Virus record (IMG/VR): IMGVR_UViG_3300034272_002197
Origin: an uncultured virus (IMG/VR IMGVR_UViG_3300034272_002197)
Lineage: Duplodnaviria; Heunggongvirae; Uroviricota; Caudoviricetes
Direction: 5' to 3' (one strand)
DNA length: 64,000 nucleotides
The translations under genes and the position numbers were made by a program. Under the pieces are notes generated by a model. The model did not search any database. It had not been told where the DNA came from and saw only the letters and a list, made by a program, of their open reading frames with translations. Of the stretch, positions 24,097-48,876 are shown in pieces (the first letter of the stretch is position 1; each line of letters begins with the position of its first letter).

Positions 24097-24646
24097 AGAG
24101 TCGTTAGAAAATTTTACCACACCCAACTATGGTAAGACCCTGCGTACCCCTGCTACTTATCAAACGGTAGCAGGGCATTGTACTCGGCACATTACCAGAC
24201 TGGTTTCGGAATATCACGCTGTTGAAAACGATCAACAACTGTTGCGTGAAATTCGTAACGACATTGATTATTATCTACGTAGATATCACGAGTACTGCAT
24301 CAAACAGCGTGATGGTATGAAAGCCCACTATCATGAAGTTGGTGCCGATGAGGATTGTGACTTTGAACACTTGATCCCGGCTGCTAGGATTAGAGACTTG
24401 TTACTCGCTAATGTACTGACTGTTGAACAAGCATTAAATGCACCTACAGTTAGACTCAGCAGAGCAAAGCATATGCAATTAAAGGATGCAGGTTGGGCGT
24501 CACATACACCCAATATGTGGCTTCCGTTTAAACGATATAGTAATGTATTTGCAGCCAACTTTACTACATTTGACGGGACCGCAGTTGATCCAGATGCATG
24601 GACTTTAGAACAACATTTTGTCTATTTTAAGCATCTGGTACTATAA
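24089..24646 (+). CDS. hypothetical protein with HNH-like EHxxP motif
   Basis: DFEHLIP...H...RY. Confidence 0.55.
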   Translation: MLKESLENFTTPNYGKTLRTPATYQTVAGHCTRHITRLVSEYHAVENDQQLLREIRNDIDYYLRRYHEYCIKQRDGMKAHYHEVGADEDCDFEHLIPAARIRDLLLANVLTVEQALNAPTVRLSRAKHMQLKDAGWASHTPNMWLPFKRYSNVFAANFTTFDGTAVDPDAWTLEQHFVYFKHLVL

Positions 24647-24649
24647 ATA
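24642..24649 (+). promoter_or_regulatory. T4-type late promoter
   Basis: exact TATAAATA upstream of the tmRNA. Confidence 0.65.
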
Positions 24650-24669
24650 ACATGTGAATGAAATAAAAG

Positions 24670-24990
24670 AATTGTTGTATGAAGTTGAATGAAAGCGGTT
24701 CTGGACCCCGGTTCGACCCCGGGCAGGTCCACCATAAGGAGATTAATATGTATCAAGTTGGTGAAACACTAGTTTACAGTTTAGCAGCCATTGTGATTGC
24801 ATTTGCTATAATCCTCTTATGATGGGCCTGAATTTGGTTTCGACAGGGCAACAAGTAAGGATATGGACAACACGGTAGGCGATGACCGTAAATCAAGCAA
24901 AACCAATAACTGCAAACGCAGCTAATGATGAGGTTTTCGCTCTAGCAGCGTAATCTCCGGGGCAACTATGCCTTGTTACCAAAAATAGTA
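24670..24990 (+). ncRNA. ssrA: circularly permuted (two-piece) tmRNA
   Basis: T-arm and CAGGTCC-ACCA (ends 24734) precede the 5' strand GGGCCTG (24824) with G3.U70; tag ANAANDEVFALAA* at 24912-24953; outer ends approximate. Confidence 0.9.
24748..24822 (+). CDS. 24-aa hydrophobic peptide in the tmRNA intervening segment
   Basis: AAGGAG RBS; MYQVGETLVYSLAAIVIAFAIILL*. Confidence 0.5.
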   Translation: MYQVGETLVYSLAAIVIAFAIILL

Positions 24991-25015
24991 ATAGGCTCTT
25001 CGGAGCCTATTTTTT
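24990..25015 (+). terminator. intrinsic terminator after the tmRNA
   Basis: AATAGGCTC-TTCG-GAGCCTATTTTTT. Confidence 0.85.
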
Positions 25016-25061
25016 ACATATACATATTTAAAAATAAATATTGTGAAAATAGGAGATTGAA

Positions 25062-35856: not shown

Positions 35857-35918
35857 ATATTGACAGTAGTTGAGTTTTATAGTATAGTTTATAACACAGA
35901 AAGATGCGAGTATTTATT

Positions 35919-36665
35919 ATGAATTTTAAACCTATTAAAGATCTATCAGGACAAACTGCTGTAATTACAGGAGCCAATGGCGGAATTGGTAGAGCCATTT
36001 GTCAAAGCCTTGCTGCCAGTGGGGCACGTATTATTGGTCTTGTGCGAAACAATATTGACGATTTTGAAATCTTTTTAGATACACTGCCAGGTCATGGGCA
36101 TTATGCAATCAAAACTGATGTCACAAAAACGGAAGAATTAATTCGCGCAAGAGATTCTGTAGATCAATGTGATATTCTAATCACCTCAGCAGGACATTCT
36201 AAACCAATACCACATTCAAATGTAGAATTTATCGATGATGAATTTTTTGAAGAAATTTTTATTTCGAATCTTAGATCGGTTTTTTCAACTATTAGAACTT
36301 TCAAACCATTGTTAGATAAAAGCAATAATGCATTGATAGTCAATATCAGTTCGGCTAGTACTCAACGTCCCGGGCATGGTAGCAATATTGCGTATGTCTC
36401 ATCAAAGGCCGGAGTAGAGGCCATGACAAAAAATCTTGCTCTAACATGGGCTCCAAAAATAAGAGTAGTATCTGTTTGTCCTAGTTCGATTAATACTGGG
36501 TTTTTATCCCATGGTGAAGAATTTTACGATCGCATGGCATCGCTGACTCCTTTGCAGCGAGTAGGAACACCCGAAGATATTGGAGCAGCAGTAGAAGCAA
36601 TTGCCACACGATTGCGTTTTACCACAGGCAATACATTTGTAATTGATGGCGGGCGTACCTTATGA
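35919..36665 (+). CDS. short-chain dehydrogenase/reductase
   Basis: TGANGGIG, NISS, YVSSK, DGG. Confidence 0.9.
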   Translation: MNFKPIKDLSGQTAVITGANGGIGRAICQSLAASGARIIGLVRNNIDDFEIFLDTLPGHGHYAIKTDVTKTEELIRARDSVDQCDILITSAGHSKPIPHSNVEFIDDEFFEEIFISNLRSVFSTIRTFKPLLDKSNNALIVNISSASTQRPGHGSNIAYVSSKAGVEAMTKNLALTWAPKIRVVSVCPSSINTGFLSHGEEFYDRMASLTPLQRVGTPEDIGAAVEAIATRLRFTTGNTFVIDGGRTL

Positions 36666-37522
36666 AAACTATTTTAACCTGTGCTATAACTGGCGCACAT
36701 ACTACCAAGAAAAGCAATCCCAACTTGCCCGTTACTCCCAAGGAGATTTCAGACTCTGCATTAGAATCTGCAGAAGCCGGCGCCAGTATTGTACATCTAC
36801 ATGTGAGAGATCCTGAAACAGCAGGACCTAGTATGAAGTTCGAGTACTACCAAGAAGTGGTAGAACGTATAAGATCGCAAAATTCAGATTTACTCATTAA
36901 CTTGACAACAGGACCAGGTGCTTCTGGACCGGCCGCAGCAGTTCGTACCGGAAGTGAATCGTTTCTTAGTCCAGAAGAAAGAGTGCGTCATGTTGTTGTC
37001 CTTAAACCAGAGATCTGTAGTTTGGATTTCAATACCATGAATCGAGGACCAGATCACATCACTGTTAATAGCGTTCCTGTAATACGAGAAATGGCCAAAC
37101 TTATACATCAGGCCGGTGTTAAACCCGAACTAGAAATATTCGACAGTGGCGACATGATGATAGCCAAGGATCTAATAGACCGAGGTGAAATCAAAGATAC
37201 TCCAATGGTACAAATAGCAACTGGTGTCAAATGGGGTTGGCCTAGCTGCCCAGAGACGCTTCAATATGCTCGAAGCATTTTACCCAGCAATACTGTTTGG
37301 TATGCATTTGGTGTAGGACGATGGCAAATGCCTTATGTAGCATTAAGTACTATCAATGGCGGACATGCCAGAGTAGGACTAGAAGATAATATTTTTGTCA
37401 GTCCCAGAGTACTTGCCCGTAGCAATGCCGAACTGGTCACTAAAGCAAAACGTATCATCGAGGATATAGGTGGACAGTTAGCAAATCCGCAAGAAACAAG
37501 AAACATGCTTGGTATAAGTTAG
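36662..37522 (+). CDS. beta-keto acid cleavage enzyme (BKACE/Kce, DUF849)
   Basis: ILTCAITGA, PVTP.EI, GASIVHLHVRD, KPELEIFD, RVGLEDN. Confidence 0.9.
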   Translation: MKTILTCAITGAHTTKKSNPNLPVTPKEISDSALESAEAGASIVHLHVRDPETAGPSMKFEYYQEVVERIRSQNSDLLINLTTGPGASGPAAAVRTGSESFLSPEERVRHVVVLKPEICSLDFNTMNRGPDHITVNSVPVIREMAKLIHQAGVKPELEIFDSGDMMIAKDLIDRGEIKDTPMVQIATGVKWGWPSCPETLQYARSILPSNTVWYAFGVGRWQMPYVALSTINGGHARVGLEDNIFVSPRVLARSNAELVTKAKRIIEDIGGQLANPQETRNMLGIS

Positions 37523-37562
37523 TTGCTAAAAAAACAATTGGAAATCATAAATAAAATGCAGG

Positions 37563-37591
37563 TTGACAACAAAGATAAATAAACATACAAT
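37563..37591 (+). promoter_or_regulatory. sigma70 promoter of the leader/tRNA region
   Basis: TTGACA-N17-TACAAT with an overlapping GATAAATA late-like box. Confidence 0.8.
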
Positions 37592-37598
37592 AGATACT

Positions 37599-37721
37599 AT
37601 GATGAACTCCGCACTATTACATAAAGCGTTTATATCACAACCCGAATGTGGGCTAACAGCCTACTGGGGTATGATTACACGTGATATTAGTAATCGTGGC
37701 CTGGGGGATTATAGAACCTAA
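37599..37721 (+). CDS. 40-aa leader peptide of a putative attenuator (not in ORF track)
   Basis: ATG at the predicted TSS; MMNSALLHKAFISQPECGLTAYWGMITRDISNRGLGDYRT*; 19 amino acids, 32 distinct codons. Confidence 0.7.
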   Translation: MMNSALLHKAFISQPECGLTAYWGMITRDISNRGLGDYRT

Positions 37722-37780
37722 GTGTAGTACAACTAAATTCTATAAAACCCCAGGACTAAACACCCTGGGGTTTTTGTTTT
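37700..37780 (+). terminator. attenuator: antiterminator (37700-37716/37738-37754) versus intrinsic terminator (37744-37754/37764-37774 plus U tract)
   Basis: 15/17 bp antiterminator and 11 bp terminator share the CCCCAGG strand. Confidence 0.8.
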
Positions 37781-37792
37781 ATAAAGGAAGAA

Positions 37793-37960
37793 ATGACAAA
37801 CGAACAAGACATACTGTCGTTTCAAAAAAAGTTAGAAGAACGTAATTTTGTTTTTAACGATCGGTTACTTGAAGAGTTAGTTAAAAGTAAATTAGAACGA
37901 TTGCGCGAGCAATCTGAACAAGCAGAAAAATTGCGTCGTCTAACAAAACGACACAAGTAA
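37793..37960 (+). CDS. 55-aa helical hypothetical protein, first gene after the attenuator
   Basis: AAGGAAG RBS; MTNEQDILSFQKKLEE... Confidence 0.6.
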   Translation: MTNEQDILSFQKKLEERNFVFNDRLLEELVKSKLERLREQSEQAEKLRRLTKRHK

Positions 37961-38212
37961 CGAGTGTGTAGCGGAACGAGGCTGCGGCAACACTATAACT
38001 TGCCAAACGGGCGGAGTCCTGGATGAAACTGTCGGCGAAAACGCAGGAGTAAAATAGGAATGATAAAGCACATTCGAACACATAATGGCGCTCGAGGCCA
38101 TGGGTCTGGTCTTCACGGGCACCCAAGAATGTGTTTTATCATACACTTTGGATGAACATGGCCTATTCCTTCTGACGGGATAGTGCGTTGCCTTGCAACA
38201 ACCAGAGTGTCT
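37961..38212 (+). ncRNA. unidentified structured RNA(s)
   Basis: GC-rich non-coding sequence; stems 38060-38075/38127-38142 and ACACTTTGG/CCAGAGTGT. Confidence 0.5.
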
Positions 38213-38214
38213 AT

Positions 38215-38306
38215 CCCCCGGTAGTTTAATGGTAAAACAGCGGATTTATATCCCGTGTGCAACAGATAATTGGCCAATGTGGGTTCGACTCCCGCCTGGG
38301 GGACCA
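38215..38306 (+). tRNA. tRNA-Ile(TAT) with long variable region
   Basis: acceptor CCCCCGG/CTGGGGG, T-arm GTGGG-TTCGACT-CCCGC, CCA; loop TT-TAT-AT. Confidence 0.7.
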
Positions 38307-38524
38307 AGTTAAAGGAGAAACCATCATGGGGCTGTGAGCGTACTGATATTAGTGGTTCTTATGTTGTTCTGGGTTGACAAAAATTTCAAATAGTAGTATA
38401 TTACATTTTTTAAAGGAGATCCTGTTATGGATAGTGACAAGAAGGGCTTGCTACGATATGGTTGGACATATCAAAACAAGCATAAACTAGCAGCATTGAT
38501 GTTCCAACTATATGGAATTCGAAT

Positions 38525-38601
38525 GGGTGCGTAACTCAACTGGTTAGAGTAATCGGCTTTTAACCGATAAGTTGTGAGTTCGAGTCTCACCGCACCCACC
38601 A
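38525..38601 (+). tRNA. tRNA-Lys(TTT)
   Basis: cloverleaf, ATCGG-CTTTTAA-CCGAT, CCA. Confidence 0.95.
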
Positions 38602-38696
38602 TCTAAAAGCATACTGGTCAGCACTGTGAGAAGCGCAGATCGACAAGACTAGAACAAGGTTTGAATCCACACTAGTATGTTTCTATATGGTTCAAT

Positions 38697-38770
38697 TGGG
38701 GATTGGTGAAATGGTATCACACCGGATTTTGATTCCGAGGTCGTAAGTTCGATCCTTACATCCCCTGCCA
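38697..38770 (+). tRNA. tRNA-Gln(TTG)
   Basis: cloverleaf, loop TTTTGAT, CCA. Confidence 0.9.
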
Positions 38771-38772
38771 AT

Positions 38773-38846
38773 GGTGTTGCTGATGTAGTGGTTGCATAAC
38801 TGACTGTGAATCAGTTTGACAGGGTTCGATTCCCGGCTTCACCCCA
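38773..38846 (+). tRNA. tRNA-His(GTG)
   Basis: G-1:C73, ACTGA-CTGTGAA-TCAGT. Confidence 0.9.
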
Positions 38847-38885
38847 ATAATAAAAAGAACTTACAAGAGAGCAATAACTATAAAC

Positions 38886-40472
38886 ATGTACGATGCAATT
38901 TTTTTCACAGACGAAACAGATAACATAGCCAGTATGCCGCCAATTGGTGCATACAAATGTGCTCACGTGCTGAGAAAAAATGGATATCGTTGTTTGGTAG
39001 TAAATCATTTTTCTTCGTTTGACGAAGACGAATTAAAAAAATTAGCAGATTTAGTTATTACTAATCAAACTAAGCTAATTGCATTCAGTACCACTTTTTT
39101 TAAAAGTATCGAAGTCGATCGAACTGAAGGGAAATCGACTCCTCGATATACAGAGTTGCCCGTTAATCAAATTTTCCCCCACGGAAAAGAAATTGAAAAT
39201 AATATAATTGGCTACTTCAAGAATCTAAATTCTGATGTAAAAATTCTTGTGGGTGGTGCAAAAGCTCACCCTAACATGAATAATAAAAATATCAATTATG
39301 CTTGTATAGGATACAGTGAAGTCAGTATTGTTAACGTAATGAATCACATAAGTCGTGGCGAAAAACTTAATAACAGTACAAAAAATTTGTGGGGCTGTAT
39401 CATTGTTGATGATAGATTGGCCAAAGAATACGATTTTGTAAATTCTGACTTTGCGTGGTTACCAGAAGACATAGTTAATCATACTTCATTACCATTGGAA
39501 GTTGCTAGAGGATGTATTTTTCAGTGCAAGTTTTGTTCGTACCCAATGAATGGTAAACAAAATCTTGATTTTGTAAGATCCGAAAAACATCTTGCATACG
39601 AGTTAGAAAAAAATTACGAAGAGCATGGCATCAAAACATATTTGTTAGTGGATGACACGTTCAACGACCATGAAGCAAAATTACAAAGATTACACAGTAT
39701 AATTAAAAAATTACCTTTCCAACCAGAGTTTTGGGGATATCATAGATTAGATTTATTGGCAACAAGACCACACACAATAGACTTGCTGTATGATATTGGT
39801 GTACGATCTATGTTTTTTGGAATTGAGACACTTAATCCTGTAAGTGCAAAATTAATTGGTAAAGGTTATAATATTGCAAAACAAATCCAAACTCTAGAGT
39901 ATCTTAGAAAAAAATATGATAAGGATTTATCATTGCACGGAAGTTTTATAGCAGGATTGCCTGAAGATACCGAGGAATCAAATTTAAAGACGTTCGAAGC
40001 AATAATGAAACAGGATGTACCTCTTCATAGTTGGATTTTTAACGCCTTAAGAATATACAGGCAAGATTTAACAACATATTCCAGTGATATTGTAAAAAAT
40101 TATAAATCTTATGGATACTACGAGGACGAAGATGTAGATACTGTTGTACCTCATGTACAATATGCTATTAAAAAATTTGATAAAATAATGAATTGGAAAA
40201 ACAAAAACACAAGCTACGAGCGTGTTAGTAAATTATCCAATTTTATCATGAAAGAAAGTTTTCAATCGGATAAATTACACATCAATGGGCAATTTGCTAT
40301 AGCAGTAAGTTCAATGAATCATCCTAATTATTCGTTTGATTCTGTTCGTAATACCTTGTTTAAAGATTTTAATTTTTACGATATCGAAACTAACGTAAGA
40401 AAACAATTTGTTCAACAATACAAAGACAGTTTGTTTTTGATTTTAAAGAAAAATTTAATTACAGCCGACTAA
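38886..40472 (+). CDS. radical SAM enzyme (B12-binding/methylthiotransferase-like layout)
   Basis: EVARGCIFQCKFC (CxxxCxxC), DDTFND, FFGIETL, SFIAGLP. Confidence 0.85.
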   Translation: MYDAIFFTDETDNIASMPPIGAYKCAHVLRKNGYRCLVVNHFSSFDEDELKKLADLVITNQTKLIAFSTTFFKSIEVDRTEGKSTPRYTELPVNQIFPHGKEIENNIIGYFKNLNSDVKILVGGAKAHPNMNNKNINYACIGYSEVSIVNVMNHISRGEKLNNSTKNLWGCIIVDDRLAKEYDFVNSDFAWLPEDIVNHTSLPLEVARGCIFQCKFCSYPMNGKQNLDFVRSEKHLAYELEKNYEEHGIKTYLLVDDTFNDHEAKLQRLHSIIKKLPFQPEFWGYHRLDLLATRPHTIDLLYDIGVRSMFFGIETLNPVSAKLIGKGYNIAKQIQTLEYLRKKYDKDLSLHGSFIAGLPEDTEESNLKTFEAIMKQDVPLHSWIFNALRIYRQDLTTYSSDIVKNYKSYGYYEDEDVDTVVPHVQYAIKKFDKIMNWKNKNTSYERVSKLSNFIMKESFQSDKLHINGQFAIAVSSMNHPNYSFDSVRNTLFKDFNFYDIETNVRKQFVQQYKDSLFLILKKNLITAD

Positions 40473-40539
40473 GCTAACCTGGTGGAAGCGTGTGCCTGAA
40501 GAGCACGAGGGCTTGGTTCGAAACCAAGAGTCGGCACCA
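40464..40539 (+). tRNA. tRNA-Phe(GAA)
   Basis: cloverleaf; 5' end overlaps the radical SAM stop codon. Confidence 0.9.
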
Positions 40540-40540
40540 A

Positions 40541-40615
40541 CGGTCCTTAGCTCAGTGGAAGAGTGCTGGTCTTCGAAACCAGGCGTCGGGAGTTCGAATC
40601 TCTCAGGACCGGCCA
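40541..40615 (+). tRNA. tRNA-Arg(TCG)
   Basis: CTGGT-CTTCGAA-ACCAG. Confidence 0.92.
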
Positions 40616-40622
40616 GTTATAT

Positions 40623-40696
40623 GCCCTTGTAGCTTAAAGGTAGAGCATTCGCTTGATAAGCGAGAGACGAAGGATCGATACCTTCCAAGGGTACCA
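40623..40696 (+). tRNA. tRNA-Ile(GAT)
   Basis: TTCGC-TTGATAA-GCGAG; atypical T-loop ATCGATA. Confidence 0.85.
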
Positions 40697-40697
40697 C

Positions 40698-40773
40698 GGT
40701 AGAGTAGCATAGTGGCCAATGCAGTACCTTCATACGGTGCGTATCGTGAGTTCGAGTCTCACCTCTACTACCA
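40698..40773 (+). tRNA. tRNA-Met(CAT), probably elongator
   Basis: GTACC-TTCATAC-GGTGC; no initiator features. Confidence 0.8.
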
Positions 40774-40820
40774 GTTAACAAAATAGCAACTGTGTGGTAA
40801 AAATACAACAAAAATATCAG

Positions 40821-40884
40821 TAGACATAAAATGAACTAGTCGCTATAATAATGAAATAGTGCAGTAAACGTTCATTAACAATTT
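40821..40884 (+). promoter_or_regulatory. sigma70 promoter plus boxA-like element
   Basis: TAGACA-N17-TATAAT; CGTTCATTAACAATTT at 40869-40884. Confidence 0.6.
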
Positions 40885-40894
40885 AGCAACAAAT

Positions 40895-40978
40895 GCCCTG
40901 GTGGTGGAATGGTAGACACGCTGGTCTTAGAAGCCAGTGTCGCAAGGCGTGGGAGTTCGAGTCTCCCCTGGGGCACCA
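40895..40978 (+). tRNA. tRNA-Leu(TAG)
   Basis: cloverleaf with variable arm. Confidence 0.95.
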
Positions 40979-41071
40979 TATAGCAACACATTAACGGTAC
41001 CTTTCGCGTAAAGATTAGGCTAAGTTAATGTGATATAATCTGAAGCCAGGTTAGTGTGTTTCTATATGGTT

Positions 41072-41260
41072 TCCGGTTACTACTTTCCTTAAAGTGGCGT
41101 GTGGCGACGAGAATTGACCCGGTGGCAGGTAACCGTTAGCGAGGCGACCCCTCAGGCACTGCTAGGCAGAATCCCAACTGCACACAGACGCGAGAATAAA
41201 TGGGATGGACAGAGTAACCGCTCAGCTTGGGGGCTTGACTGGAAAACAAGTGGCCCAAGC
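41072..41260 (+). ncRNA. unidentified structured RNA, copy 1 (related to 47276-47468)
   Basis: shared 3' motif GGACAGRGYAAC..CTCAG plus a covarying hairpin. Confidence 0.6.
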
Positions 41261-41380
41261 AAGATTTAAAGTAAAACGATCGAGTGCGAATCGTCCCGCA
41301 AGGGTTCAGCAAGGGTTTGATGCATTGTTGTGACTTCGGCATCATGTAACAGTCAGTTCCTTGTTAGCATTAATTTTTAT

Positions 41381-41455
41381 GCACCGTTCGTCTATCGGTT
41401 AGGACACCCGCCTTTCACGCAGGTAAGAGGAGTTCGATTCTCCTACGGTGTACCA
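41381..41455 (+). tRNA. tRNA-Glu(TTC)
   Basis: cloverleaf, loop CTTTCAC. Confidence 0.92.
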
Positions 41456-41468
41456 TATAAATACGAGC

Positions 41469-41714
41469 ATGAAAGACCTACTAGAAAAGCTACCACAAAT
41501 TTTGGGCATGATGCCCCAACTTGTACAATTTCTAAAGTATATACCCGTACTAATGGTTCTTGCTGGTATAGGATTCGGAGTCTACTATTGGACTCAAAAT
41601 TACAAAGATCCATACATTTGCGTAAACAATCACGTTTTTGAACAGCTACGCATTGACAGTGACGTATATGTATTCAAAGGCGGCACTTGTGTGGATGTAA
41701 AAGACACAAAATAA
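41469..41714 (+). CDS. small membrane protein
   Basis: TATAAATA at 41456, TM helix. Confidence 0.7.
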   Translation: MKDLLEKLPQILGMMPQLVQFLKYIPVLMVLAGIGFGVYYWTQNYKDPYICVNNHVFEQLRIDSDVYVFKGGTCVDVKDTK

Positions 41715-41717
41715 TTT

Positions 41718-41793
41718 GGGGGTATAGCTCAGCTGGGAGAGCACCTGCTTTGCAAGCAGGGGGTCATCGGTTCGATCCCGTTTACCTCCACCA
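41718..41793 (+). tRNA. tRNA-Ala(TGC)
   Basis: canonical, G3.U70. Confidence 0.97.
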
Positions 41794-41802
41794 AAGTTAA
41801 AT

Positions 41803-41887
41803 GGGGATGCGGCTAAGTTAGAGAGTGGCGGCTGACTGTAAATCAGTTCTTTCGGGTGAGTAGGTGCGAATCCTTCCATCCCCACCA
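41803..41887 (+). tRNA. tRNA-Tyr(GTA)
   Basis: GCTGA-CTGTAAA-TCAGT, variable arm. Confidence 0.9.
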
Positions 41888-41900
41888 ATTAGGAGTAGTT

Positions 41901-42185
41901 ATGGTTATATATCGTGTACCGCATGCTTACCTAAACGACTATCAAATGATAGGTCAGCGTCTGCAGGTACTTATGGATATGAAACGCAAAGATATTGACC
42001 ATCATGAACAGCTAGAATTATCTAAGTTATTGGCCTTGCAAGAGGCGCATAGATTATTGCGAAATTATAACTATGATAAGGATACAGAATTTTTAAGGCA
42101 GTATGCCTATGGTGAAAGTATTCGTGAACAGCGTCTAGTGCAACGTGCCAGCGCCATAGGTATGAATATAGATAGATACATTTAA
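41901..42185 (+). CDS. hypothetical protein
   Basis: AGGAG RBS; start reassigned to after the tRNA. Confidence 0.7.
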   Translation: MVIYRVPHAYLNDYQMIGQRLQVLMDMKRKDIDHHEQLELSKLLALQEAHRLLRNYNYDKDTEFLRQYAYGESIREQRLVQRASAIGMNIDRYI

Positions 42186-42187
42186 TT

Positions 42188-42264
42188 GGGAGATTAGCTC
42201 AGCTGGTACGAGCGGCGCCCTTACAAGGCGAAGGTCGGCGGTTCGATCCCGTCATCTCCTACCA
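42188..42264 (+). tRNA. tRNA-Val(TAC)
   Basis: cloverleaf. Confidence 0.95.
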
Positions 42265-42272
42265 AGTTTTAT

Positions 42273-42347
42273 TCCGATGTAGCTCAGAGGCAGAGCAGAA
42301 GACTGTTAATCTTTTGGTCGGTGGTTCGATCCCACCCGTCGGAGCCA
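42273..42347 (+). tRNA. tRNA-Asn(GTT)
   Basis: cloverleaf. Confidence 0.95.
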
Positions 42348-42349
42348 AG

Positions 42350-42552
42350 AACGTTCCAGCGTCACTGGATACTCTGACCCGGAGGATGAGAAGTGCCTTG
42401 ACAAGCACGGGTGGTACACTTCAAACCGAAAGTGCGCTGGCAATGCGAGAACGGAACCTGTCGTGGAGAGGGTGGAGGCCGTGTGTGATGGTATCGGGAG
42501 TTCCTGGTGCTTGATGCGGTATAATTACCTCCGGGGTTCGCAGAGCATCAGA
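42350..42552 (+). ncRNA. unidentified ~200-nt structured RNA
   Basis: GC-rich spacer between tRNAs, closed by CTCTG/CAGAG and CCGGAGG/CCTCCGG. Confidence 0.55.
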
Positions 42553-42556
42553 TTCA

Positions 42557-42631
42557 GGTCCTATAGTATATCGGTAAGTATGGCGCCCTGTCACGGCGCA
42601 GAGACGGGTTCGACTCCCGTTGGGACCGCCA
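42557..42631 (+). tRNA. tRNA-Asp(GTC)
   Basis: cloverleaf. Confidence 0.95.
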
Positions 42632-42640
42632 AGTTTTAAT

Positions 42641-42715
42641 GCGGGTGTAACTCAGTGGTAGAGTGTCAGCCTTCCAAGCTGTTCGTCGCAGGTTCGATCC
42701 CTGTCACCCGCTCCA
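42641..42715 (+). tRNA. tRNA-Gly(TCC)
   Basis: cloverleaf. Confidence 0.95.
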
Positions 42716-42721
42716 CTAAAT

Positions 42722-42845
42722 TGTTGCTTTCGAGCAACATTGCTAAACCAGCAACTTGTGTTGCAATTTTAGCAACAAAATCTTTTGATAGACCATAAAG
42801 GCCCATTTTGCTACAATAGCAGTATAGTAATTAACAAGGAGACAA
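42722..42845 (+). promoter_or_regulatory. early promoter cassette with three tandem palindromes
   Basis: TGTTGC-N6/7-GCAACA at 42722 and 42759 plus a degenerate copy; TAGACC-N17-TACAAT; AAGGAG. Confidence 0.75.
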
Positions 42846-42847
42846 AA

Positions 42848-43051
42848 ATGGCATTTGAATCCCGGGTACTTGAACTAATCGCCCCAGTCCTCGATGAAGG
42901 CCGTGCTGAATTTTATTACGGTTCTTTGTTTCTTGAAGACGTAACTGAAAACACTGCCCGTCGTGTGTTTTCTACTTTGTGTCGCGAGTTTGACTTTAAA
43001 GTGCAGCCTAGTAAAGTCGGTGACAATTATGTGTACGATTTTATTGCTTAA
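42848..43051 (+). CDS. hypothetical protein
   Basis: start reassigned after RBS. Confidence 0.7.
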   Translation: MAFESRVLELIAPVLDEGRAEFYYGSLFLEDVTENTARRVFSTLCREFDFKVQPSKVGDNYVYDFIA

Positions 43052-43129
43052 ATAGCAACAAATATTTTGGTAGACCATAATTCACCATTTTGCTATAATA
43101 TTGGTATAGTAACTAATAAGGAGCCCAAA

Positions 43130-43441
43130 ATGAAGCTGCTAATCACTACCCAAGTTTACGAAAACTACGCCTGGCGCGAAGACGGTACCCTGGGTGTCGG
43201 CGACGATGCATATTGGAAAGCCAAAGGCGGTCGCGAATATGTAGTGAAGAATTTTCGCGGTGACGATACAATCGCAGTCATGGCCGTACGCGGTCAAATT
43301 GAGACTGAGAACGACGGCTATCGCGAACATATTGTTGATTGGGTGGTTGTTGCTGATGATTACCTTACCCAATTTGAGCGTGATCAATTAGAGTACGAAG
43401 GCCGGATCACTTTTCCTGCAACAGAGTTGGAAGTAGCCTAA
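43130..43441 (+). CDS. hypothetical phage protein (TQ..ENY...YWKAKGG)
   Basis: promoter 43071-43099, AAGGAG RBS. Confidence 0.75.
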   Translation: MKLLITTQVYENYAWREDGTLGVGDDAYWKAKGGREYVVKNFRGDDTIAVMAVRGQIETENDGYREHIVDWVVVADDYLTQFERDQLEYEGRITFPATELEVA

Positions 43442-43451
43442 GGAGACCGCA

Positions 43452-43607
43452 ATGTCTAGAAAACATTTTGAATCGTTGGCCAAATATGTTCGTGCTATCA
43501 TGGATCCGCATGCCAGATTGCAAGCCGCCTGTGCAGTAGCCAGTTCTTGTGCGGAAATGAATCCAAAATTTGATACACAGAAATTTTTTGAAGCTTGCGG
43601 AGTATAA
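43452..43607 (+). CDS. small hypothetical protein (not in ORF track)
   Basis: AAGGAG RBS; MSRKHFE...NPKFD..KF..ACG. Confidence 0.65.
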   Translation: MSRKHFESLAKYVRAIMDPHARLQAACAVASSCAEMNPKFDTQKFFEACGV

Positions 43608-43626
43608 TTAATATAAGGAGAGCAAA

Positions 43627-44229
43627 ATGCCAGCAGTGTTTTTAGTTAGTGACACGCATTTTGGTCACGCTGGCGTTTGCCGTTTTACTCGCAACGACGG
43701 TGTCACTAAACTGCGTCCTTGGGATAACCCCGAGGAAATGGATGAGTTCATGGTCGAAGCCTGGAACGAACGAGTTAGGCCCAACGACAAAGTCTATCAC
43801 TTAGGCGATGTTGTTATAAACAGACGAGCACTGAACACGCTCAGCCGCCTAAACGGGGATAAGGTTTTGATCCGTGGTAATCACGACATTTTTCGCGATG
43901 ACGAGTATCGCAAGTATTTTCGTGAACTACGTGCATACCATGTCATGAACGGAATGATACTAAGTCATATTCCTATTCATGAGGACAGTCTTGGTAGGTT
44001 TGGTGTTAATATTCACGGCCATTTGCATGCCAATCGTGTGATGAAGCGAGCTGGTTCTACCGCAGAGTTCATGGAGTGGGGTGTTCGGGAGAAAATTGAC
44101 CCTCGCTATCATTGTGTATGCGTGGAGCAAACAGACTTTGCGCCTATCTTGTTTGAGGATGTTATCAAACGTATCACAGCAGAAGGTGGTACGATAGGCT
44201 TCAAAAACGGCAACGGTCCTGTGATGTAA
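43627..44229 (+). CDS. calcineurin-like metallophosphoesterase
   Basis: SDTHFGH, YHLGD, GNHD, HGHLH. Confidence 0.92.
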   Translation: MPAVFLVSDTHFGHAGVCRFTRNDGVTKLRPWDNPEEMDEFMVEAWNERVRPNDKVYHLGDVVINRRALNTLSRLNGDKVLIRGNHDIFRDDEYRKYFRELRAYHVMNGMILSHIPIHEDSLGRFGVNIHGHLHANRVMKRAGSTAEFMEWGVREKIDPRYHCVCVEQTDFAPILFEDVIKRITAEGGTIGFKNGNGPVM

Positions 44230-44891
44230 TGAAGACCTTGTTATTTTGTGCCAGTTTTGCCGGTTCGCAAGGACTTTGGAACCACAGATGGAAGCGTTGG
44301 TTGGATTATCATACTGCTATAGGATTGGAGTTTGATCAGGTACTAATAGTTGATGACGGTTCGCCGACGCTGCCACTGGACATAGATTGTCAAGTAATTT
44401 ATGATTTGCCTGATGTACAACCTGACCATAATGTTGTGTTGTTTCATCACGCAGATAATCTTGGATCTCCGGCACCGTTTGAGTATCCGGGTCTGTATAG
44501 AAGTATGCAGACAGCAACAGATTATGCTGCAAAGTATAATTTTGATAAAATTGTAAACATCGAATCTGATGCATTTGTTTTAACCAAACGAATAGTAGAG
44601 TATATAAACGATATCAATGATGATTGGACAGCTTTGTGGGATCATCATTTTGCCATACCCGAACTTGGTATAAACATTGCAGCAGGTCGCGGATTGGAAT
44701 TGTGGTCATCAGTGTTTAATCAGGCTTATGATCGTTTTAGAGGAAAAATGTTAGAAGATGAGATGCCGTTTACTCGAGTTGAAAAAAATTTTACAGGAGC
44801 CAGATACGGAGAATTTGTAGACAGTGTTCCTGATGATGCCGATTATGCCAATCAAATTGATCAACTTTGGACAAGCATCTACAAAAAATAA
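44229..44891 (+). CDS. glycosyltransferase-A-like protein
   Basis: LIVDDGS, IESDAF. Confidence 0.55.
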   Translation: MKTLLFCASFAGSQGLWNHRWKRWLDYHTAIGLEFDQVLIVDDGSPTLPLDIDCQVIYDLPDVQPDHNVVLFHHADNLGSPAPFEYPGLYRSMQTATDYAAKYNFDKIVNIESDAFVLTKRIVEYINDINDDWTALWDHHFAIPELGINIAAGRGLELWSSVFNQAYDRFRGKMLEDEMPFTRVEKNFTGARYGEFVDSVPDDADYANQIDQLWTSIYKK

Positions 44892-44942
44892 TTGCTTGAA
44901 ATGAAGCAATGCTGTACAATGTACTTAACAAGTAAGATTAAT

Positions 44943-45034
44943 GGAGCGTTGGCCGAGTTGGTCGAAGGCACTTTCCTGCTAAGAAAGCATACCTCATAAG
45001 GGTATCATTGGTTCGAATCCAATACGCTCCGCCA
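44943..45034 (+). tRNA. tRNA-Ser(GCT)
   Basis: cloverleaf with long variable arm. Confidence 0.95.
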
Positions 45035-45040
45035 ATTTAA

Positions 45041-45114
45041 GCCCTTTTAGTTAAATGGTATAACAGTTGATTTGTAATCATCTATTGGCAGTTCGATTCT
45101 GTCAAAGGGCACCA
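45041..45114 (+). tRNA. tRNA-Thr(TGT)
   Basis: cloverleaf. Confidence 0.9.
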
Positions 45115-45126
45115 AAGGATTTTATT

Positions 45127-45354
45127 ATGCCACATCCAAGTGATTTAGCACAACGAGCAATAGAAAGAATGATGAACTTACAAGAGTTCACCGTTACTGT
45201 ACCTGTGGAAGACGGTTGGTTACCAAACGGCGTGGTTCCGTTTGATATTAAGATAAAAAACGGATTTGCTACAGTGTCCGTTCCGGCCTTGACAGAAGAC
45301 GAAGCTCGTAGTAAAATAATAGCTTATTTTAACAGCAGTGATGAAGAAGATTAA
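45127..45354 (+). CDS. hypothetical protein
   Basis: AAGGA RBS after the tRNA. Confidence 0.65.
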   Translation: MPHPSDLAQRAIERMMNLQEFTVTVPVEDGWLPNGVVPFDIKIKNGFATVSVPALTEDEARSKIIAYFNSSDEED

Positions 45355-45355
45355 T

Positions 45356-45433
45356 CCGGGTGTAGCTCAGCCAGGCTAGAGCACCTGCTTTGGGAGCAGG
45401 GGGTCGTAGGTTCGAATCCTGCTACCCGGACCA
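45356..45433 (+). tRNA. tRNA-Pro(TGG)
   Basis: cloverleaf. Confidence 0.95.
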
Positions 45434-45443
45434 AGTTTTAAAT

Positions 45444-45530
45444 GCCCGGATGGTGAAATAGGTAGACACAAGAGACTTAAAATCTCTCGCTGGAAACAGC
45501 GTGCCGGTTCGATTCCGGCTCCGGGCACCA
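45444..45530 (+). tRNA. tRNA-Leu(TAA)
   Basis: cloverleaf with variable arm. Confidence 0.95.
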
Positions 45531-45539
45531 AGTTTGTAT

Positions 45540-45617
<78 letters not shown>

Positions 45618-45637
45618 TTATTGTTTAGGAATATGTT

Positions 45638-45787
45638 ATGCCAATGTACGAAACAACTGTAAGAACACCGCAAGGTGATGTCAAAGATCGTGTATACGCC
45701 AAAGACCTAGCGGAAGCTAGAATGCTGTTTGAACAAAGGCATGGCCCAAGGAATGTACCGTATATTCCAAAAGTAATACCAAGTTAA
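45638..45787 (+). CDS. small hypothetical protein (not in ORF track)
   Basis: AGGA RBS; MPMYETTVRTPQG... Confidence 0.6.
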   Translation: MPMYETTVRTPQGDVKDRVYAKDLAEARMLFEQRHGPRNVPYIPKVIPS

Positions 45788-45788
45788 A

Positions 45789-45863
45789 CTGGCGTTCGTT
45801 CAACGGATAGGACAGGAGTCTTCTAAACTCTTAATGGGGGTTCGATTCCCTCACGCCGGACCA
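45789..45863 (+). tRNA. tRNA-Arg(TCT)
   Basis: cloverleaf. Confidence 0.92.
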
Positions 45864-45871
45864 AGTTTAGT

Positions 45872-45949
45872 GCAACGGTGGCAGAGAGGCCCAATGCAAG
45901 GGACTGCAAATCCCTAAAACCGTCAGTTCGAATCTGACCCGTTGCTCCA
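45872..45949 (+). tRNA. tRNA-Cys(GCA)
   Basis: cloverleaf, U73. Confidence 0.92.
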
Positions 45950-45960
45950 TAAATATCGGT

Positions 45961-46197
45961 ATGTTAGTGGACTGGCACAGATTCCCTTATCATGCAACCA
46001 TTCCGTGGCCCATATATGATTCCGATCAATATGATTGGGTAGAAAGTCTAATTACCGTAGAGGATTGGTTAAAACAATGCGTAGGAGCAAGATATGCAAC
46101 TTGGGCCTACAATGACTGCGATATTCTCTACAATATTGGTGTAGCATTTAAATGGGATCAAGATCGAACATTGTTTGTTATGACTTGGTCCAAATAA
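45961..46197 (+). CDS. small protein, FxLxW-like paralog family
   Basis: ends VAFKWDQDRTLFVMTWSK. Confidence 0.7.
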   Translation: MLVDWHRFPYHATIPWPIYDSDQYDWVESLITVEDWLKQCVGARYATWAYNDCDILYNIGVAFKWDQDRTLFVMTWSK

Positions 46198-46287
46198 GGA
46201 AGTGTGGCAGAGTCCGGTTTATTGCACCTGTCTTGAAAACAGACGATCCGCAAGGATCCGTGAGTTCGAATCTCACCGCTTCCGCCA
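46198..46287 (+). tRNA. tRNA-Ser(TGA)
   Basis: cloverleaf with long variable arm. Confidence 0.95.
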
Positions 46288-46356
46288 AAATAGTAGTTGA
46301 CAATAATACAAACCTCAAGTATAATATGAAGTACATTAACTAACTAGGAGTTGTAA

Positions 46357-46614
46357 ATGAATATCAAACTTCGTGCTGCTGCTCGTACCGCTGGTATGTT
46401 TGCTATTGCAACCGTAATTCCAGTCGTTTTGGTAGCACTATTCCGTCTGGATGCAGAAACACTTTTTAATCTATTTGTGTTGTCTTTTTTTATTGGTGGT
46501 ATCTGGGTTATATATTCTATCAATCTAAGCACATTAGAAAGCGAAGAATCCATTCGCCAGATGCAAGAGCGTAGAGAAACAATGTTGAGTAACGTAGTTA
46601 ATAAGCAAGAGTAA
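46357..46614 (+). CDS. two-TM membrane protein
   Basis: promoter near 46298, AGGAG RBS. Confidence 0.7.
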   Translation: MNIKLRAAARTAGMFAIATVIPVVLVALFRLDAETLFNLFVLSFFIGGIWVIYSINLSTLESEESIRQMQERRETMLSNVVNKQE

Positions 46615-46619
46615 TCTAT

Positions 46620-46693
46620 TCCGGTGTGGTGTAATGGCAGCGCCGCGGTCTCCAAAACCGCTAGTGGGGGTTCGATTCCCTCCACCGGAGCCA
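46620..46693 (+). tRNA. tRNA-Trp(CCA)
   Basis: GCGGT-CTCCAAA-ACCGC. Confidence 0.93.
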
Positions 46694-46716
46694 ACTTTAT
46701 TTTACAGGAGTTTGCA

Positions 46717-46902
46717 ATGATGAAATATTTTCGAGTAGGTTTGCCGTTTGTCATTCTTTTGTTTTGTGTGTTTAATGTCGTTGCAGCATATGGTGCCAGT
46801 AATACAATGGCTGTAAGTGGTTATTGGATGGCCTTTTGTGGTTGGGCGGCTGTAGCATTCGATGAATATCTGACTTATCGTAGAGAAAACAGGAGTGCGT
46901 AA
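46717..46902 (+). CDS. small membrane protein
   Basis: AGGAG RBS; hydrophobic. Confidence 0.65.
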   Translation: MMKYFRVGLPFVILLFCVFNVVAAYGASNTMAVSGYWMAFCGWAAVAFDEYLTYRRENRSA

Positions 46903-46989
46903 TGTTGAACATTCCGTTGCGTGAAATACCTTACTACATTAAATGGAAATTCAAACAACTGTTGAAACATTTTAAGTAAATAAAGAATA

Positions 46990-47190
46990 GTCCGGCCCTC
47001 TGTTGTTTCGGCAACGAGCAAAACGGTATAGCTGGAATTTACCAGTGAAGGACGCAGGACGCTGCGTTCAATCTACGGACATCCGGGAGGATAACTCCCA
47101 AATAATTTGATAGTGTACAGGCACTTTGTAAATCCTGTCTTTGTGTGGTACCGAACATCGCTCCTGCTTGGAAAAGCATCGGTGCAAAGA
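46990..47190 (+). ncRNA. unidentified structured RNA(s)
   Basis: series of hairpins after a GTAAATA box; no credible ORF. Confidence 0.45.
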
Positions 47191-47195
47191 ACAAT

Positions 47196-47272
47196 GGCGG
47201 AGGGGAGAAACGGTTTACTCGTCAGTCTCATAAGCTGAAGACATCAGGTTCGATTCCTGTTCTCCGCAACCA
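47196..47272 (+). tRNA. initiator-like tRNA-fMet(CAT)
   Basis: 1:72 mismatch, CCGCAACCA end; anticodon stem lacks the three G-C pairs. Confidence 0.8.
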
Positions 47273-47275
47273 AAC

Positions 47276-47468
47276 CTCGGGATCCCTACTCGTTAATAAT
47301 AGGGGGTGGTTGGCGTCACCAAAATGTCAGGGTGCATACGATCATAACCTCAGAACCCGCTTACATGGGTGCAAGAAAAATCGTAGGTTTAGCTGGCACA
47401 AGCCATAAGGACCGTCAGGGGACAGGGCAACAACTCAGTTGGGGGCTGATGAGGATCAGTAGCCCAAC
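47276..47468 (+). ncRNA. unidentified structured RNA, copy 2 (related to 41072-41260)
   Basis: shared 3' motif and hairpin. Confidence 0.6.
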
Positions 47469-47489
47469 ACCGATTACTAGGAGCCAGTG

Positions 47490-47651
47490 ATGCCTAATTC
47501 AAACTTTAAAAATTGGTTGAGACTTATCTGGTTAGAAAATTGTCGTGAACACGAAGACCATCGAGAGCTGCCTTACACATTAAAAGAATATTGGAATCGA
47601 TATCGATGGTGGTTGCGTAGAGAATACCGGCACCAACAAAAGAGCAAATAA
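47490..47651 (+). CDS. small Trp-rich hypothetical protein (not in ORF track)
   Basis: AGGAG RBS; followed by terminator AAACGGAC-TTGG-GTCCGTTTTT. Confidence 0.65.
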   Translation: MPNSNFKNWLRLIWLENCREHEDHRELPYTLKEYWNRYRWWLRREYRHQQKSK

Positions 47652-47721
47652 AACGGACTTGGGTCCGTTTTTTATTGACTGCACAATCTTTATTTGTTAA
47701 AATACAACACAAGGTGATATC

Positions 47722-47907
47722 ATGCGTAAGCCCGAAAAAATTTTTAAAGTTAAAAATCTTCGTACCGGGGAAGTATTTACTACCAGCACGGTTTACGAAA
47801 AGGACATCGACGGCGAGCAGTTCATTGGTGTTTGGCGTGAAGCTGATCCACATCGTAGAATAAACTGGATACGACGAAATAGCACAGTAAAACTATCAAA
47901 TAAATAG
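47722..47907 (+). CDS. hypothetical protein
   Basis: AAGGTG RBS. Confidence 0.65.
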   Translation: MRKPEKIFKVKNLRTGEVFTTSTVYEKDIDGEQFIGVWREADPHRRINWIRRNSTVKLSNK

Positions 47908-47925
47908 TAAAAAAGGTTTTACACT

Positions 47926-48876
47926 ATGAAAAAAATTCCTAAGATGTCCTTGGAACAATACAATGAATTGGCAGGAGCTGAGTGGCCATTGTTTTCTGAT
48001 TATATAAAAGGAAACATCACGTCAAAATTAATAAAACTAGAAATTTCGTATCACGAAAGACAGATATACAACGAAGATAAAAAAAATAGAATAAAATACG
48101 CAGATGAATACAATTCAAAATACAAATCCTTTAACAAAAGATTTTTTATAAAATATTTTTTACTAGTTTTATTCCCGGCGATTGTTGGTACAGGGCTTTA
48201 CTTTTATCTAGGTGGCACTTTAACAAAGTTTTTAATTCTGTTTTTGTGCTTTAGATTTCTTAACATTTTGTATACTCAAGTAATGCATAGATGGTTATGT
48301 CATCATATGTTTGAACCTAAAAAATGGGCTAGACCTTTTTTGTTATGGATAGTGGTTGCAGGATGTCACAGTCATACCGGTAATTGGATTAGAGGCCATT
48401 GGTCTCATCATCAAGATGACGGAACCGAACTAGATCCGTACCCTCCTTCGTGGGGACTATTAAAGTTGGCATTTATAGTACAACGTTATTGGAGACCGTA
48501 TCCGTTTGGTCGTTGGATGACTGCTCCTGATATCAAATTTGTATTCAGAAATATATGTTGGTTATGGTTAATTAATGCAGCAATATTTGCTTATATCGAT
48601 ATTGATATTTTCTTGCTTAGTTTTCTTTTTATACAAGTTTATGCAAACTTAGATGACGGGGTTTCTAATTTCTTACTTCATGATGGATTCCGTACTCAAC
48701 AACCAGTAAACTTTCCAGTTTTTGGATATTTTGTTAGTTTATTTGTTGCTATTGAATCTGTGCATATTGTACACACAACCAGGCCTTGGATTTTTAACCA
48801 GGCCAAAAACGTGCCTGGTGCAATAGATTTAGGATATTTGTTAATGAAACCTTTTGCAGCATCAGAAAGAGAATAA
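47926..48876 (+). CDS. membrane fatty acid desaturase-like protein
   Basis: His boxes HRWLCHH, HWSHH, HIVH; TM helices. Confidence 0.8.
   Translation: MKKIPKMSLEQYNELAGAEWPLFSDYIKGNITSKLIKLEISYHERQIYNEDKKNRIKYADEYNSKYKSFNKRFFIKYFLLVLFPAIVGTGLYFYLGGTLTKFLILFLCFRFLNILYTQVMHRWLCHHMFEPKKWARPFLLWIVVAGCHSHTGNWIRGHWSHHQDDGTELDPYPPSWGLLKLAFIVQRYWRPYPFGRWMTAPDIKFVFRNICWLWLINAAIFAYIDIDIFLLSFLFIQVYANLDDGVSNFLLHDGFRTQQPVNFPVFGYFVSLFVAIESVHIVHTTRPWIFNQAKNVPGAIDLGYLLMKPFAASERE

Follow-up and report, generated by a model that had tools for sequence, protein, structure and literature searches.

Why phages carry transfer RNA (tRNA) genes, and how these genes are controlled, has been debated for decades. Among the hypotheses named for them are codon compensation and a means of escaping defences that cleave tRNAs (PMC10264068, PMC11555353 and PMC11464382). 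The question takes a specific form in a 64,000-nucleotide stretch of DNA from an uncultured virus of the Caudoviricetes (IMG/VR record IMGVR_UViG_3300034272_002197; hereafter the window), in which a 40-codon open reading frame (ORF), with a promoter before it and a terminator behind it (37563-37780), precedes a structured RNA and a set of tRNA genes: what does this short leader do for the genes that follow it? An earlier note, made by a model from the letters alone, had seen in it a candidate attenuator that detects shortage or cleavage of nearly any tRNA. By collecting relatives of the leader and examining their peptides, their RNA folds and the genes behind them, we find that the ORF belongs to a family whose peptides hold far more of the 20 amino acids than chance would give, and that the 3' end of the ORF pairs with one arm of the terminator throughout that family. 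From these sequences the leader is probably a ribosome-mediated attenuator of transcription, its ORF composed so as to present nearly every amino acid or tRNA class a single time, and the best reading of its logic is that transcription would read through whenever any class of codon is decoded slowly.

The anatomy of the leader in the window, where all the features described here lie on the + strand, agrees base for base with what the earlier note had placed there. A sigma-70-type promoter (37563..37591; TTGACA at 37563-37568, a 17-nucleotide spacer and TACAAT at 37586-37591) scores 11/12 in a promoter scan, and an ATG at 37599 stands 7 nucleotides past its -10 hexamer; by this spacing transcription would start at or beside the ATG. 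The ATG opens a leaderless ORF of 40 codons plus TAA (37599..37721, with the TAA at 37719-37721) encoding the peptide MMNSALLHKAFISQPECGLTAYWGMITRDISNRGLGDYRT. A recount of its codons returned the diversity already described: 32 distinct codons, 19 amino acids (Val being absent) and 23 of 24 decoding classes, with AUA and the split boxes of Leu, Ser and Arg counted beside the 20 amino acids; no codon recurs among codons 2-18, and by codon 29 the ORF has sampled 21 classes. By chance, a comparison that the note had proposed, at least 23 classes are expected with P = 0.0034. The last ORF codons form the left strand of a putative antiterminator (37700..37716), which pairs at 15 of 17 positions with a right strand at 37738..37754 in a hairpin of -23.5 kcal/mol; the 3' part of that right strand is also the left arm of an intrinsic terminator (37744..37780; -17.4 kcal/mol) with an 11-bp stem (37744-37754/37764-37774) and a U tract reaching 37780. 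The terminator loop (37755-37763) is the conserved 9-nucleotide ACTAAACAC, the stem is followed by TTTTTGTTTT, and an automated terminator scan missed the structure solely through its loop limit of 8. The 185-nucleotide RNA of the window folds at -59.7 kcal/mol (z = -4.8, with none of 200 shuffles as good), and the fold of lowest energy contains the antiterminator and not the terminator.

Relatives were drawn from IMG/VR contigs by three routes. Synteny with the gene for a beta-keto acid cleavage enzyme (BKACE) upstream yielded one syntenic locus of nine (L001), whose leader is near-identical to that of the window in nucleotides; the motif of nc2, the structured RNA downstream, yielded 42 loci (L018-L059); and the promoter pattern together with its conserved spacer yielded 82. 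Synteny around a radical-SAM gene of the window gave eight loci, in none of which blastn found the leader. Iterating a profile search through every six-frame ORF of the collected loci and the window produced 50 distinct family peptides of 38-52 residues, 48 of them with enough downstream DNA for their terminator regions; in the window itself the profile found a single copy, and no similar leader lies behind the other promoter-like sites there.

Amino-acid completeness is a trait of this family, and it lies so far beyond chance that it appears to be selected. All 20 amino acids occur in 32 of the 50 peptides, 19 in 12, 18 in five and 17 in one (mean 19.5), whereas an independent, identically distributed null with the composition of the family gives a mean of 17.03 and 1.3 complete peptides in 50. 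Forty-residue windows of the window's own proteins average 15.97 amino acids, with a probability of 0.006 of holding all 20; 480 small ORFs from the same loci that are not members of the family average 16.3 (all 20 in 2.7%); and uniform random peptides of 40 residues average 17.4. When residues were shuffled within alignment columns (2000 shuffles) the mean was 18.19 and the maximum 18.68, with 5.6 complete peptides (at most 13) against the 32 observed, and this excess over every column shuffle indicates that the loss of an amino acid at one position is compensated elsewhere in the same peptide. Only seven alignment columns are at least 70% conserved, all amino acids are under-dispersed (variance/mean below 1), and no residue is enriched or occurs in runs. 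Cysteine, for example, is present in 39 of the 50 peptides, exactly once in 38 of them, at 17 alignment columns. Counted by decoding class, 14 of the 50 leaders sample all 24, and 30 sample at least 23, against 1.0 expected.

The same trait is found in a sample gathered independently, with no use of the promoter pattern. When 1.84 billion cluster representatives, all mutually less than 50% identical, were searched with a profile, 176 proteins were returned at E<=0.001; among the best 150 of the 176, one is a 930-residue repeat protein and one has no assignable start, and the other 148, of 38-53 residues, were used. All 20 amino acids are present in 103 of these representatives, 19 in 37, 18 in six and 17 in two, and exactly one Cys is found in 111 of the 148, at 32 different positions among the matches listed. 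Conserved diversity, which the earlier note had named as something to look for in related phages, is found both in the 50 relatives and in the independent sample. The design may also extend past the recognisable family: 17 nc2 loci went unrecognised by the profile, and in 14 of them a different small ORF stops some 50 nucleotides short of a similar terminator; these ORFs encode all 20 amino acids in five cases (46-55 residues), 19 in three and 16-18 in six short ones (32-33 residues). The loci with such unrecognised ORFs are L022, L027, L034, L046, L054, L024, L050, L055 and six others.

A leader of this kind would have to be read by ribosomes, and several signs suggest that it is. Frame 0 is open in all 50 homologues, compared with one of 50 for the +1 frame and none for the +2 frame over the same span, despite many length differences; the earlier note's expectation of a conserved ORF is borne out here. 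The ATG lies 6-11 nucleotides past the -10 hexamer in 33 of the 50, making these leaders leaderless or nearly so, while the other 17 have a 5' untranslated region, 27-50 nucleotides long where the promoter falls within 80 nucleotides upstream. In six of these 17 an AGGA, GGAG or AAGG lies between positions -18 and -5, resembling a Shine-Dalgarno site, and the remainder are purine-rich before the ATG as judged by eye. This exchange of a leaderless start for a ribosome-binding site within one lineage argues that translation is what is kept. The ratio of non-synonymous to synonymous change (pN/pS), pooled over 17 disjoint pairs, is 0.51, with 93, 107 and 131 differences by codon position, a weak coding signature of the sort that would be expected of a peptide of partly constrained sequence.

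The second half of the proposed device, the choice between terminator and antiterminator, is as widely conserved as the ORF. A terminator is present in all 48 homologues with enough downstream DNA, beginning 16-29 nucleotides past the stop codon and carrying an A-rich conserved loop of 8-11 nucleotides; in alignment A1, 97.7% of its cells are paired and five of its 11 pairs show compensatory changes, none of 500 shuffles reaches as high a value, and slid controls collapse. All 48 also have an antiterminator, formed by the 3' end of the ORF and the left arm of the terminator (plus preceding bases) and thus sharing a strand with the terminator, with hairpin energies between -15 and -31 kcal/mol where the terminators have -11 to -17, and in all 48 the stop codon falls within the antiterminator hairpin. 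The helix sequences differ between subgroups, and cognate antiterminator arms pair at -22.4 kcal/mol versus -15.5 for non-cognate ones, the cognate arm ranking in the top five of 48 in 33 cases and best in 13. The antiterminator therefore changes along with the terminator whose arm it shares, and folding of both conformers in the window, which the note had suggested, puts the antiterminator ahead (the -23.5 and -17.4 kcal/mol given above).

Folded without a ribosome, the full-length transcripts take the antiterminator form at minimum free energy in 40 of 48 cases. The simplest reading of these folds is that read-through would be the default state, and that a ribosome at the stop codon would unwind the left strand and let the terminator form. 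No anti-antiterminator or pause segment that would terminate the untranslated RNA was found in the minimum-free-energy folds or in the full-length alignment. RNAalifold on the 48 full-length transcripts recovered the terminator alone, a result whose bearing on conserved 5' structure is limited by the poor alignment of the middle by MAFFT. A cmscan against Rfam (E<=1; window positions 36500-48500 and 16 related loci) assigned the leader to no family, T-box and amino-acid leaders included, and its sole match at the leader was of the terminator to the SpF11 small RNA (28.3 bits against a gathering score of 54, E = 0.61).

What lies behind the switch would be, in order, a small protein, an RNA and tRNA genes. 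The first gene is a 55-amino-acid ORF (37793..37960) with its own ribosome site, AAAGGAAG, and a product rich in Glu, Lys, Leu and Arg; a counterpart of 51-60 residues is present in 35 of the 50 homologues. A small ORF after the terminator is absent from nine relatives with enough downstream DNA, and in eight of these nine the nc2 motif begins 88-135 nucleotides past the stop codon. Neither the 55-amino-acid product nor the leader peptide has a match in Pfam or PHROG. The conserved structured RNA nc2 (37962..38214), seen at the 42 viral loci mentioned above, comprises a covarying hairpin whose loop reads AACGAGG, another hairpin whose loop reads GCGAWAAC, a loop of CACTATAA and the motif AAACGGGCGGA, which is invariant, and has no match in Rfam by cmscan at E<=1 in the window or the 16 related loci. 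Among 185,579 species genomes the nc2 pattern hit twice, both times in coding sequence without tRNAs, and these hits were rejected as chance. Next comes the gene for tRNA-Ile with anticodon UAU (38215..38306), the first of 26 tRNA genes called on the + strand between 38215 and 47268, which have 24 different anticodons and cover all 20 amino acids. This tRNA-Ile is 92 nucleotides long and has a long extra stretch, and versions of 91-95 nucleotides are likewise the first tRNA past nc2 in L030, L033 and L071.

The placement of the leader before a non-coding RNA and tRNA region, which the earlier note had stressed, recurs in the relatives: within the DNA available downstream of the leaders, the nc2 motif is found at 38 of 50 and at least one tRNA gene at 31 of 50. 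Wherever relatives could be compared, the outcome supported the reading given in the earlier note. A promoter scan of the window found no promoter-like site between 37780 and 38374, and the 55-amino-acid ORF, nc2 and tRNA-Ile(UAU) therefore appear dependent on read-through from the leader.

On the reading that we favour, the switch would operate as follows. Transcription would begin at or beside the ATG at 37599, and a ribosome would load onto the 5' end of the RNA. The last seven or so codons of the ORF would supply the left strand of the antiterminator, and the right strand would include the left arm of the terminator. If all 40 codons were decoded promptly, the ribosome would arrive at the stop codon and melt the antiterminator, the terminator would form and the transcript would end at about 37780. 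If instead the ribosome were held at a codon 5' of the hairpin (roughly codons 2-31), or had never loaded, the more stable antiterminator would persist, and polymerase would read on into the 55-amino-acid ORF, nc2, tRNA-Ile(UAU) and beyond. As the tRNAs of the phage cover all 20 amino acids, such a circuit would turn up the tRNA region during slow decoding and turn it off once the supply suffices. Candidate physiological signals would be starvation, decay of host tRNAs and anticodon nucleases.

Further features of the leader may modulate this scheme. The promoter spacer holds the conserved GATAAATAAA, and the same promoter stands 5' of the homologues; the spacer also contains a copy of ATAAATAAA (37575-37583), of which another copy lies upstream of the promoter (37547..37555), the same arrangement being found in L001, L041 and L035. 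This direct repeat may be an UP-like element or an operator. Within the ORF, the minimum-free-energy fold contains a hairpin, GTGGGCT-AAC-AGCCTAC (37648..37664), over the conserved Ala-Tyr-Trp codons, which from its position in the fold may be a pause or synchronising hairpin; hairpins resembling it were noticed by eye in relatives, and the poor MAFFT alignment of the middle limits a family-wide test.

Several observations weigh against the idea that the leader samples every decoding class in order to sense it. The members of the family are related, and the counts over 50 or 48 homologues are accordingly not counts of independent events. Taken by itself the leader of the window is only mildly unusual in amino acids (P = 0.049 for at least 19 of 20 in 40-residue windows of its long ORFs), although it is rarer by chance in decoding classes. 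Across the family the classes most often missing are AUA (absent from 24 of 50) and AGR (16 of 50). Mean coverage falls from 19.5 to 18.6 amino acids when the count is confined to codons at which a stall would spare the hairpin, and Glu is supplied by the tail only in 20 of 48 members. An invariant Trp, and Gly and Arg conserved in at least 90%, are unexplained by a rule of one of each; the same codons recur at motifs by eye (GCCTAYTGG, GATCG), and these may be part of a pause hairpin (at 37648-37664 in the window) or reflect an effect of the nascent peptide. The pN/pS of 0.51 likewise indicates constraint on the peptide or the RNA beyond one of each. The leader codons are not enriched in Watson-Crick matches to the anticodons of the phage (18 of 40 against a mean of 17.8), and with no such tuning the leader resembles a maximally diverse sample of normal phage codons and not a mirror of the phage tRNA set. 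Eight of the 48 untranslated transcripts fold to the terminator form. Single codons stall ribosomes more weakly than the codon runs of trp and his leaders. Lastly, the promoter-like sites further downstream, at 38374, 40821, 42789, 43071, 45289 and 46297, may make most of the tRNA genes independent of the switch; the earlier note's caveat that further promoters could limit its reach stands.

Some of these points invite other explanations of the locus. The same hardware could be a general sensor of translation, or of the coupling between transcription and translation, that reports ribosome loading and pace (ribosome availability, inhibitors or infection stage), its codon diversity having no sensing role. 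The default fold would suit such a sensor, as read-through in 40 of 48 means that any failure of translation would open the switch, and so would the leaderless starts of 33 of 50 members and a codon choice untuned to the phage tRNAs; the upstream ORF (uORF) of mycobacterial whiB7 is described as a general sensor of translation stress (PMC10274678). We nonetheless think this unlikely: it leaves unexplained why 20 amino acids should be retained in 38-53 residues, with Cys relocating among 17 columns (and 32 positions in the representatives) and coverage exceeding every column shuffle. The ORF might instead be a stand-alone gene for a small protein, with its own promoter and terminator, a long hairpin that merely stabilises the 3' end of the messenger RNA, and downstream genes transcribed from elsewhere. 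A conserved peptide motif (Gln-Pro, Gly, Ala-Tyr-Trp, Ser-Asp-Arg), the pN/pS of 0.51 and the 176 predicted-protein clusters would all fit a protein, yet this explanation strikes us as quite improbable. In all 48 members the hairpin encloses the stop codon and competes for the terminator's left arm; the window has no promoter-like site at 37780-38374 from which its next genes could start; in nine relatives no small ORF follows the terminator, and in eight of them nc2 lies 88-135 nucleotides after the stop; and the peptide belongs to no Pfam or PHROG family, while a functional fold would give no reason to expect each residue once, at positions that shift.

Arrest peptides of the TnaC or SecM type suggest another possibility, namely that the conserved residues act in the ribosome exit tunnel and pause the ribosome, perhaps on sensing a small molecule. 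The invariant Trp, the nearly invariant Gly and Arg, and an Asp-Arg-Thr-Pro-Glu conserved in the largest subgroup are what such an element might show, but the subgroup of the window lacks the Thr-Pro-Glu part, the Trp stands at varying distances from the stop and from the conserved Arg, and the motif codons seem by eye to be fixed at synonymous sites too, a pattern pointing to RNA-level constraint; with amino-acid completeness also left unexplained, we see only a slim likelihood that arrest is the function. That the locus is purely an RNA switch, of riboswitch or T-box-like kind, with an incidental open frame, we consider exceedingly improbable. The RNA is strongly structured (z = -4.8) and nearly totally conserved in nucleotides between the window and L001, but the frame is open in 50 of 50 against one and none for the alternatives despite many indels, the start codons stand at the 5' end or behind ribosome sites, and Rfam has no match, T-box included. 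The attenuator with a leader selected for amino-acid completeness is the explanation that we carry forward.

The genomic setting of the leader is that of a phage. The window encodes an ATP-dependent DNA ligase, an endonuclease, tail-fibre and tail-collar proteins and a minor head protein. It also has a permuted (two-piece type) transfer-messenger RNA (tmRNA) gene (24642-25044) with the tag peptide ANAANDEVFALAA, and this tmRNA and the full tRNA set together point to a phage with heavy investment in translation. Just 5' of the leader promoter lie a short-chain dehydrogenase and the BKACE gene (35904-37522), metabolic genes that are unusual in a phage. Between the tRNA genes is a radical-SAM protein of 528 residues (38886-40472) with a weak match to a B12-binding domain, relatives of which (26-44% identity) occur in tRNA-rich regions of other viral contigs. 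After the last tRNA-Met, a G+C-rich non-coding stretch (47268-47480) matches nothing in Rfam at E<=1. A blastn search with positions 36600-39000 through 50,697 phage records gave matches to tRNAs only, tblastn with a family peptide gave two records at E = 0.9, which is not meaningful, and the nearest DNA ligase is 34% identical to that of the window; by these three comparisons, no isolated phage was found to carry the leader element.

A wider proposal can be built on the attenuator, and we regard it as evenly poised between being right and wrong: that the leader is a universal decoding sensor in a clade of uncultured tRNA-rich phages, its ORF selected to hold every amino acid (and often every codon-box class) about once and wired to a terminator and antiterminator, such that shortage or cleavage of any single tRNA would derepress a small protein, nc2 and a complete tRNA set. 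If this is true, the phage would govern its decoding capacity autonomously by way of feedback, and would carry a built-in alarm against host defences that target tRNAs. A cis-acting sensor of the whole tRNA pool would provide a testable regulatory link for the hypotheses about phage tRNAs, would generalise the logic of attenuation from one amino acid to twenty in some 40 codons, could serve as a compact natural reporter of decoding capacity, and would tie a widespread structured RNA, nc2, to translation stress. Full-text searches of the literature returned no account of a leader selected for all amino acids or of an attenuator before phage tRNA genes.

Known systems supply the parts of this design in other combinations. 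T-box riboswitches bind one specific uncharged tRNA directly, with no need for translation. The phage element would resemble them in tying tRNA charging to the choice between terminator and antiterminator, and differs in having a conserved ORF and no match to the Rfam T-box. Leaders of the trpL and hisL type repeat one to three regulatory amino acids in runs, and their RNA, when untranslated, is terminated by means of a pause or anti-antiterminator segment. They share with the phage leader an ORF to be translated, mutually exclusive terminator and antiterminator, and a stop codon placed such that an arriving ribosome would favour termination; by contrast, the phage leader has no runs, each amino acid occurs about once, the untranslated RNA is predicted to read through (40 of 48), and the regulated genes are decoding RNAs and not biosynthetic enzymes. 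The phage leader departs from the trp and his picture drawn in the earlier note in its untranslated state, for which no anti-antiterminator was found, and in a codon choice untuned to the phage anticodons. Attenuators of amino-acid operons of this kind (trpL, hisL and pheL, and the multivalent thrL and ilvL) are treated in PMC3082878 and PMC1183508. In mycobacteria, polycysteine leaderless short ORFs are amino-acid-responsive attenuators of downstream genes, according to bioRxiv 10.1101/834739; like most phage leaders they are leaderless and short, and they are Cys-rich where the phage leader usually has one Cys.

The closest precedent is the uORF of mycobacterial whiB7, as described in PMC10274678. 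Efficient translation of that uORF leads to a Rho-independent terminator and stalling leads to an antiterminator and read-through, and the amino acids sensed depend on those present in the uORF; the Mycobacterium smegmatis uORF lacks Cys alone, and that of Mycobacterium tuberculosis lacks several. Induction by Trp deprivation dropped strongly when the only Trp codon was taken out, and induction by His deprivation was lost once the three His codons were all gone, showing that as little as one codon can be enough. The phage leader and the whiB7 uORF showed no sequence similarity. Both have a short ORF upstream, a terminator and an antiterminator that competes with it, and we infer that the phage switch runs in the same direction. 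The whiB7 uORF is 25-40% Ala, varies in the amino acids that it lacks and controls a bacterial transcription factor, whereas in the phage leader Ala makes up 5.3% of pooled residues, no residue is enriched, and the genes that follow are the 55-amino-acid ORF, nc2 and the tRNAs. The phage leader further differs in being compact (38-53 codons), in being leaderless in most members, and in appearing to have been selected for completeness.

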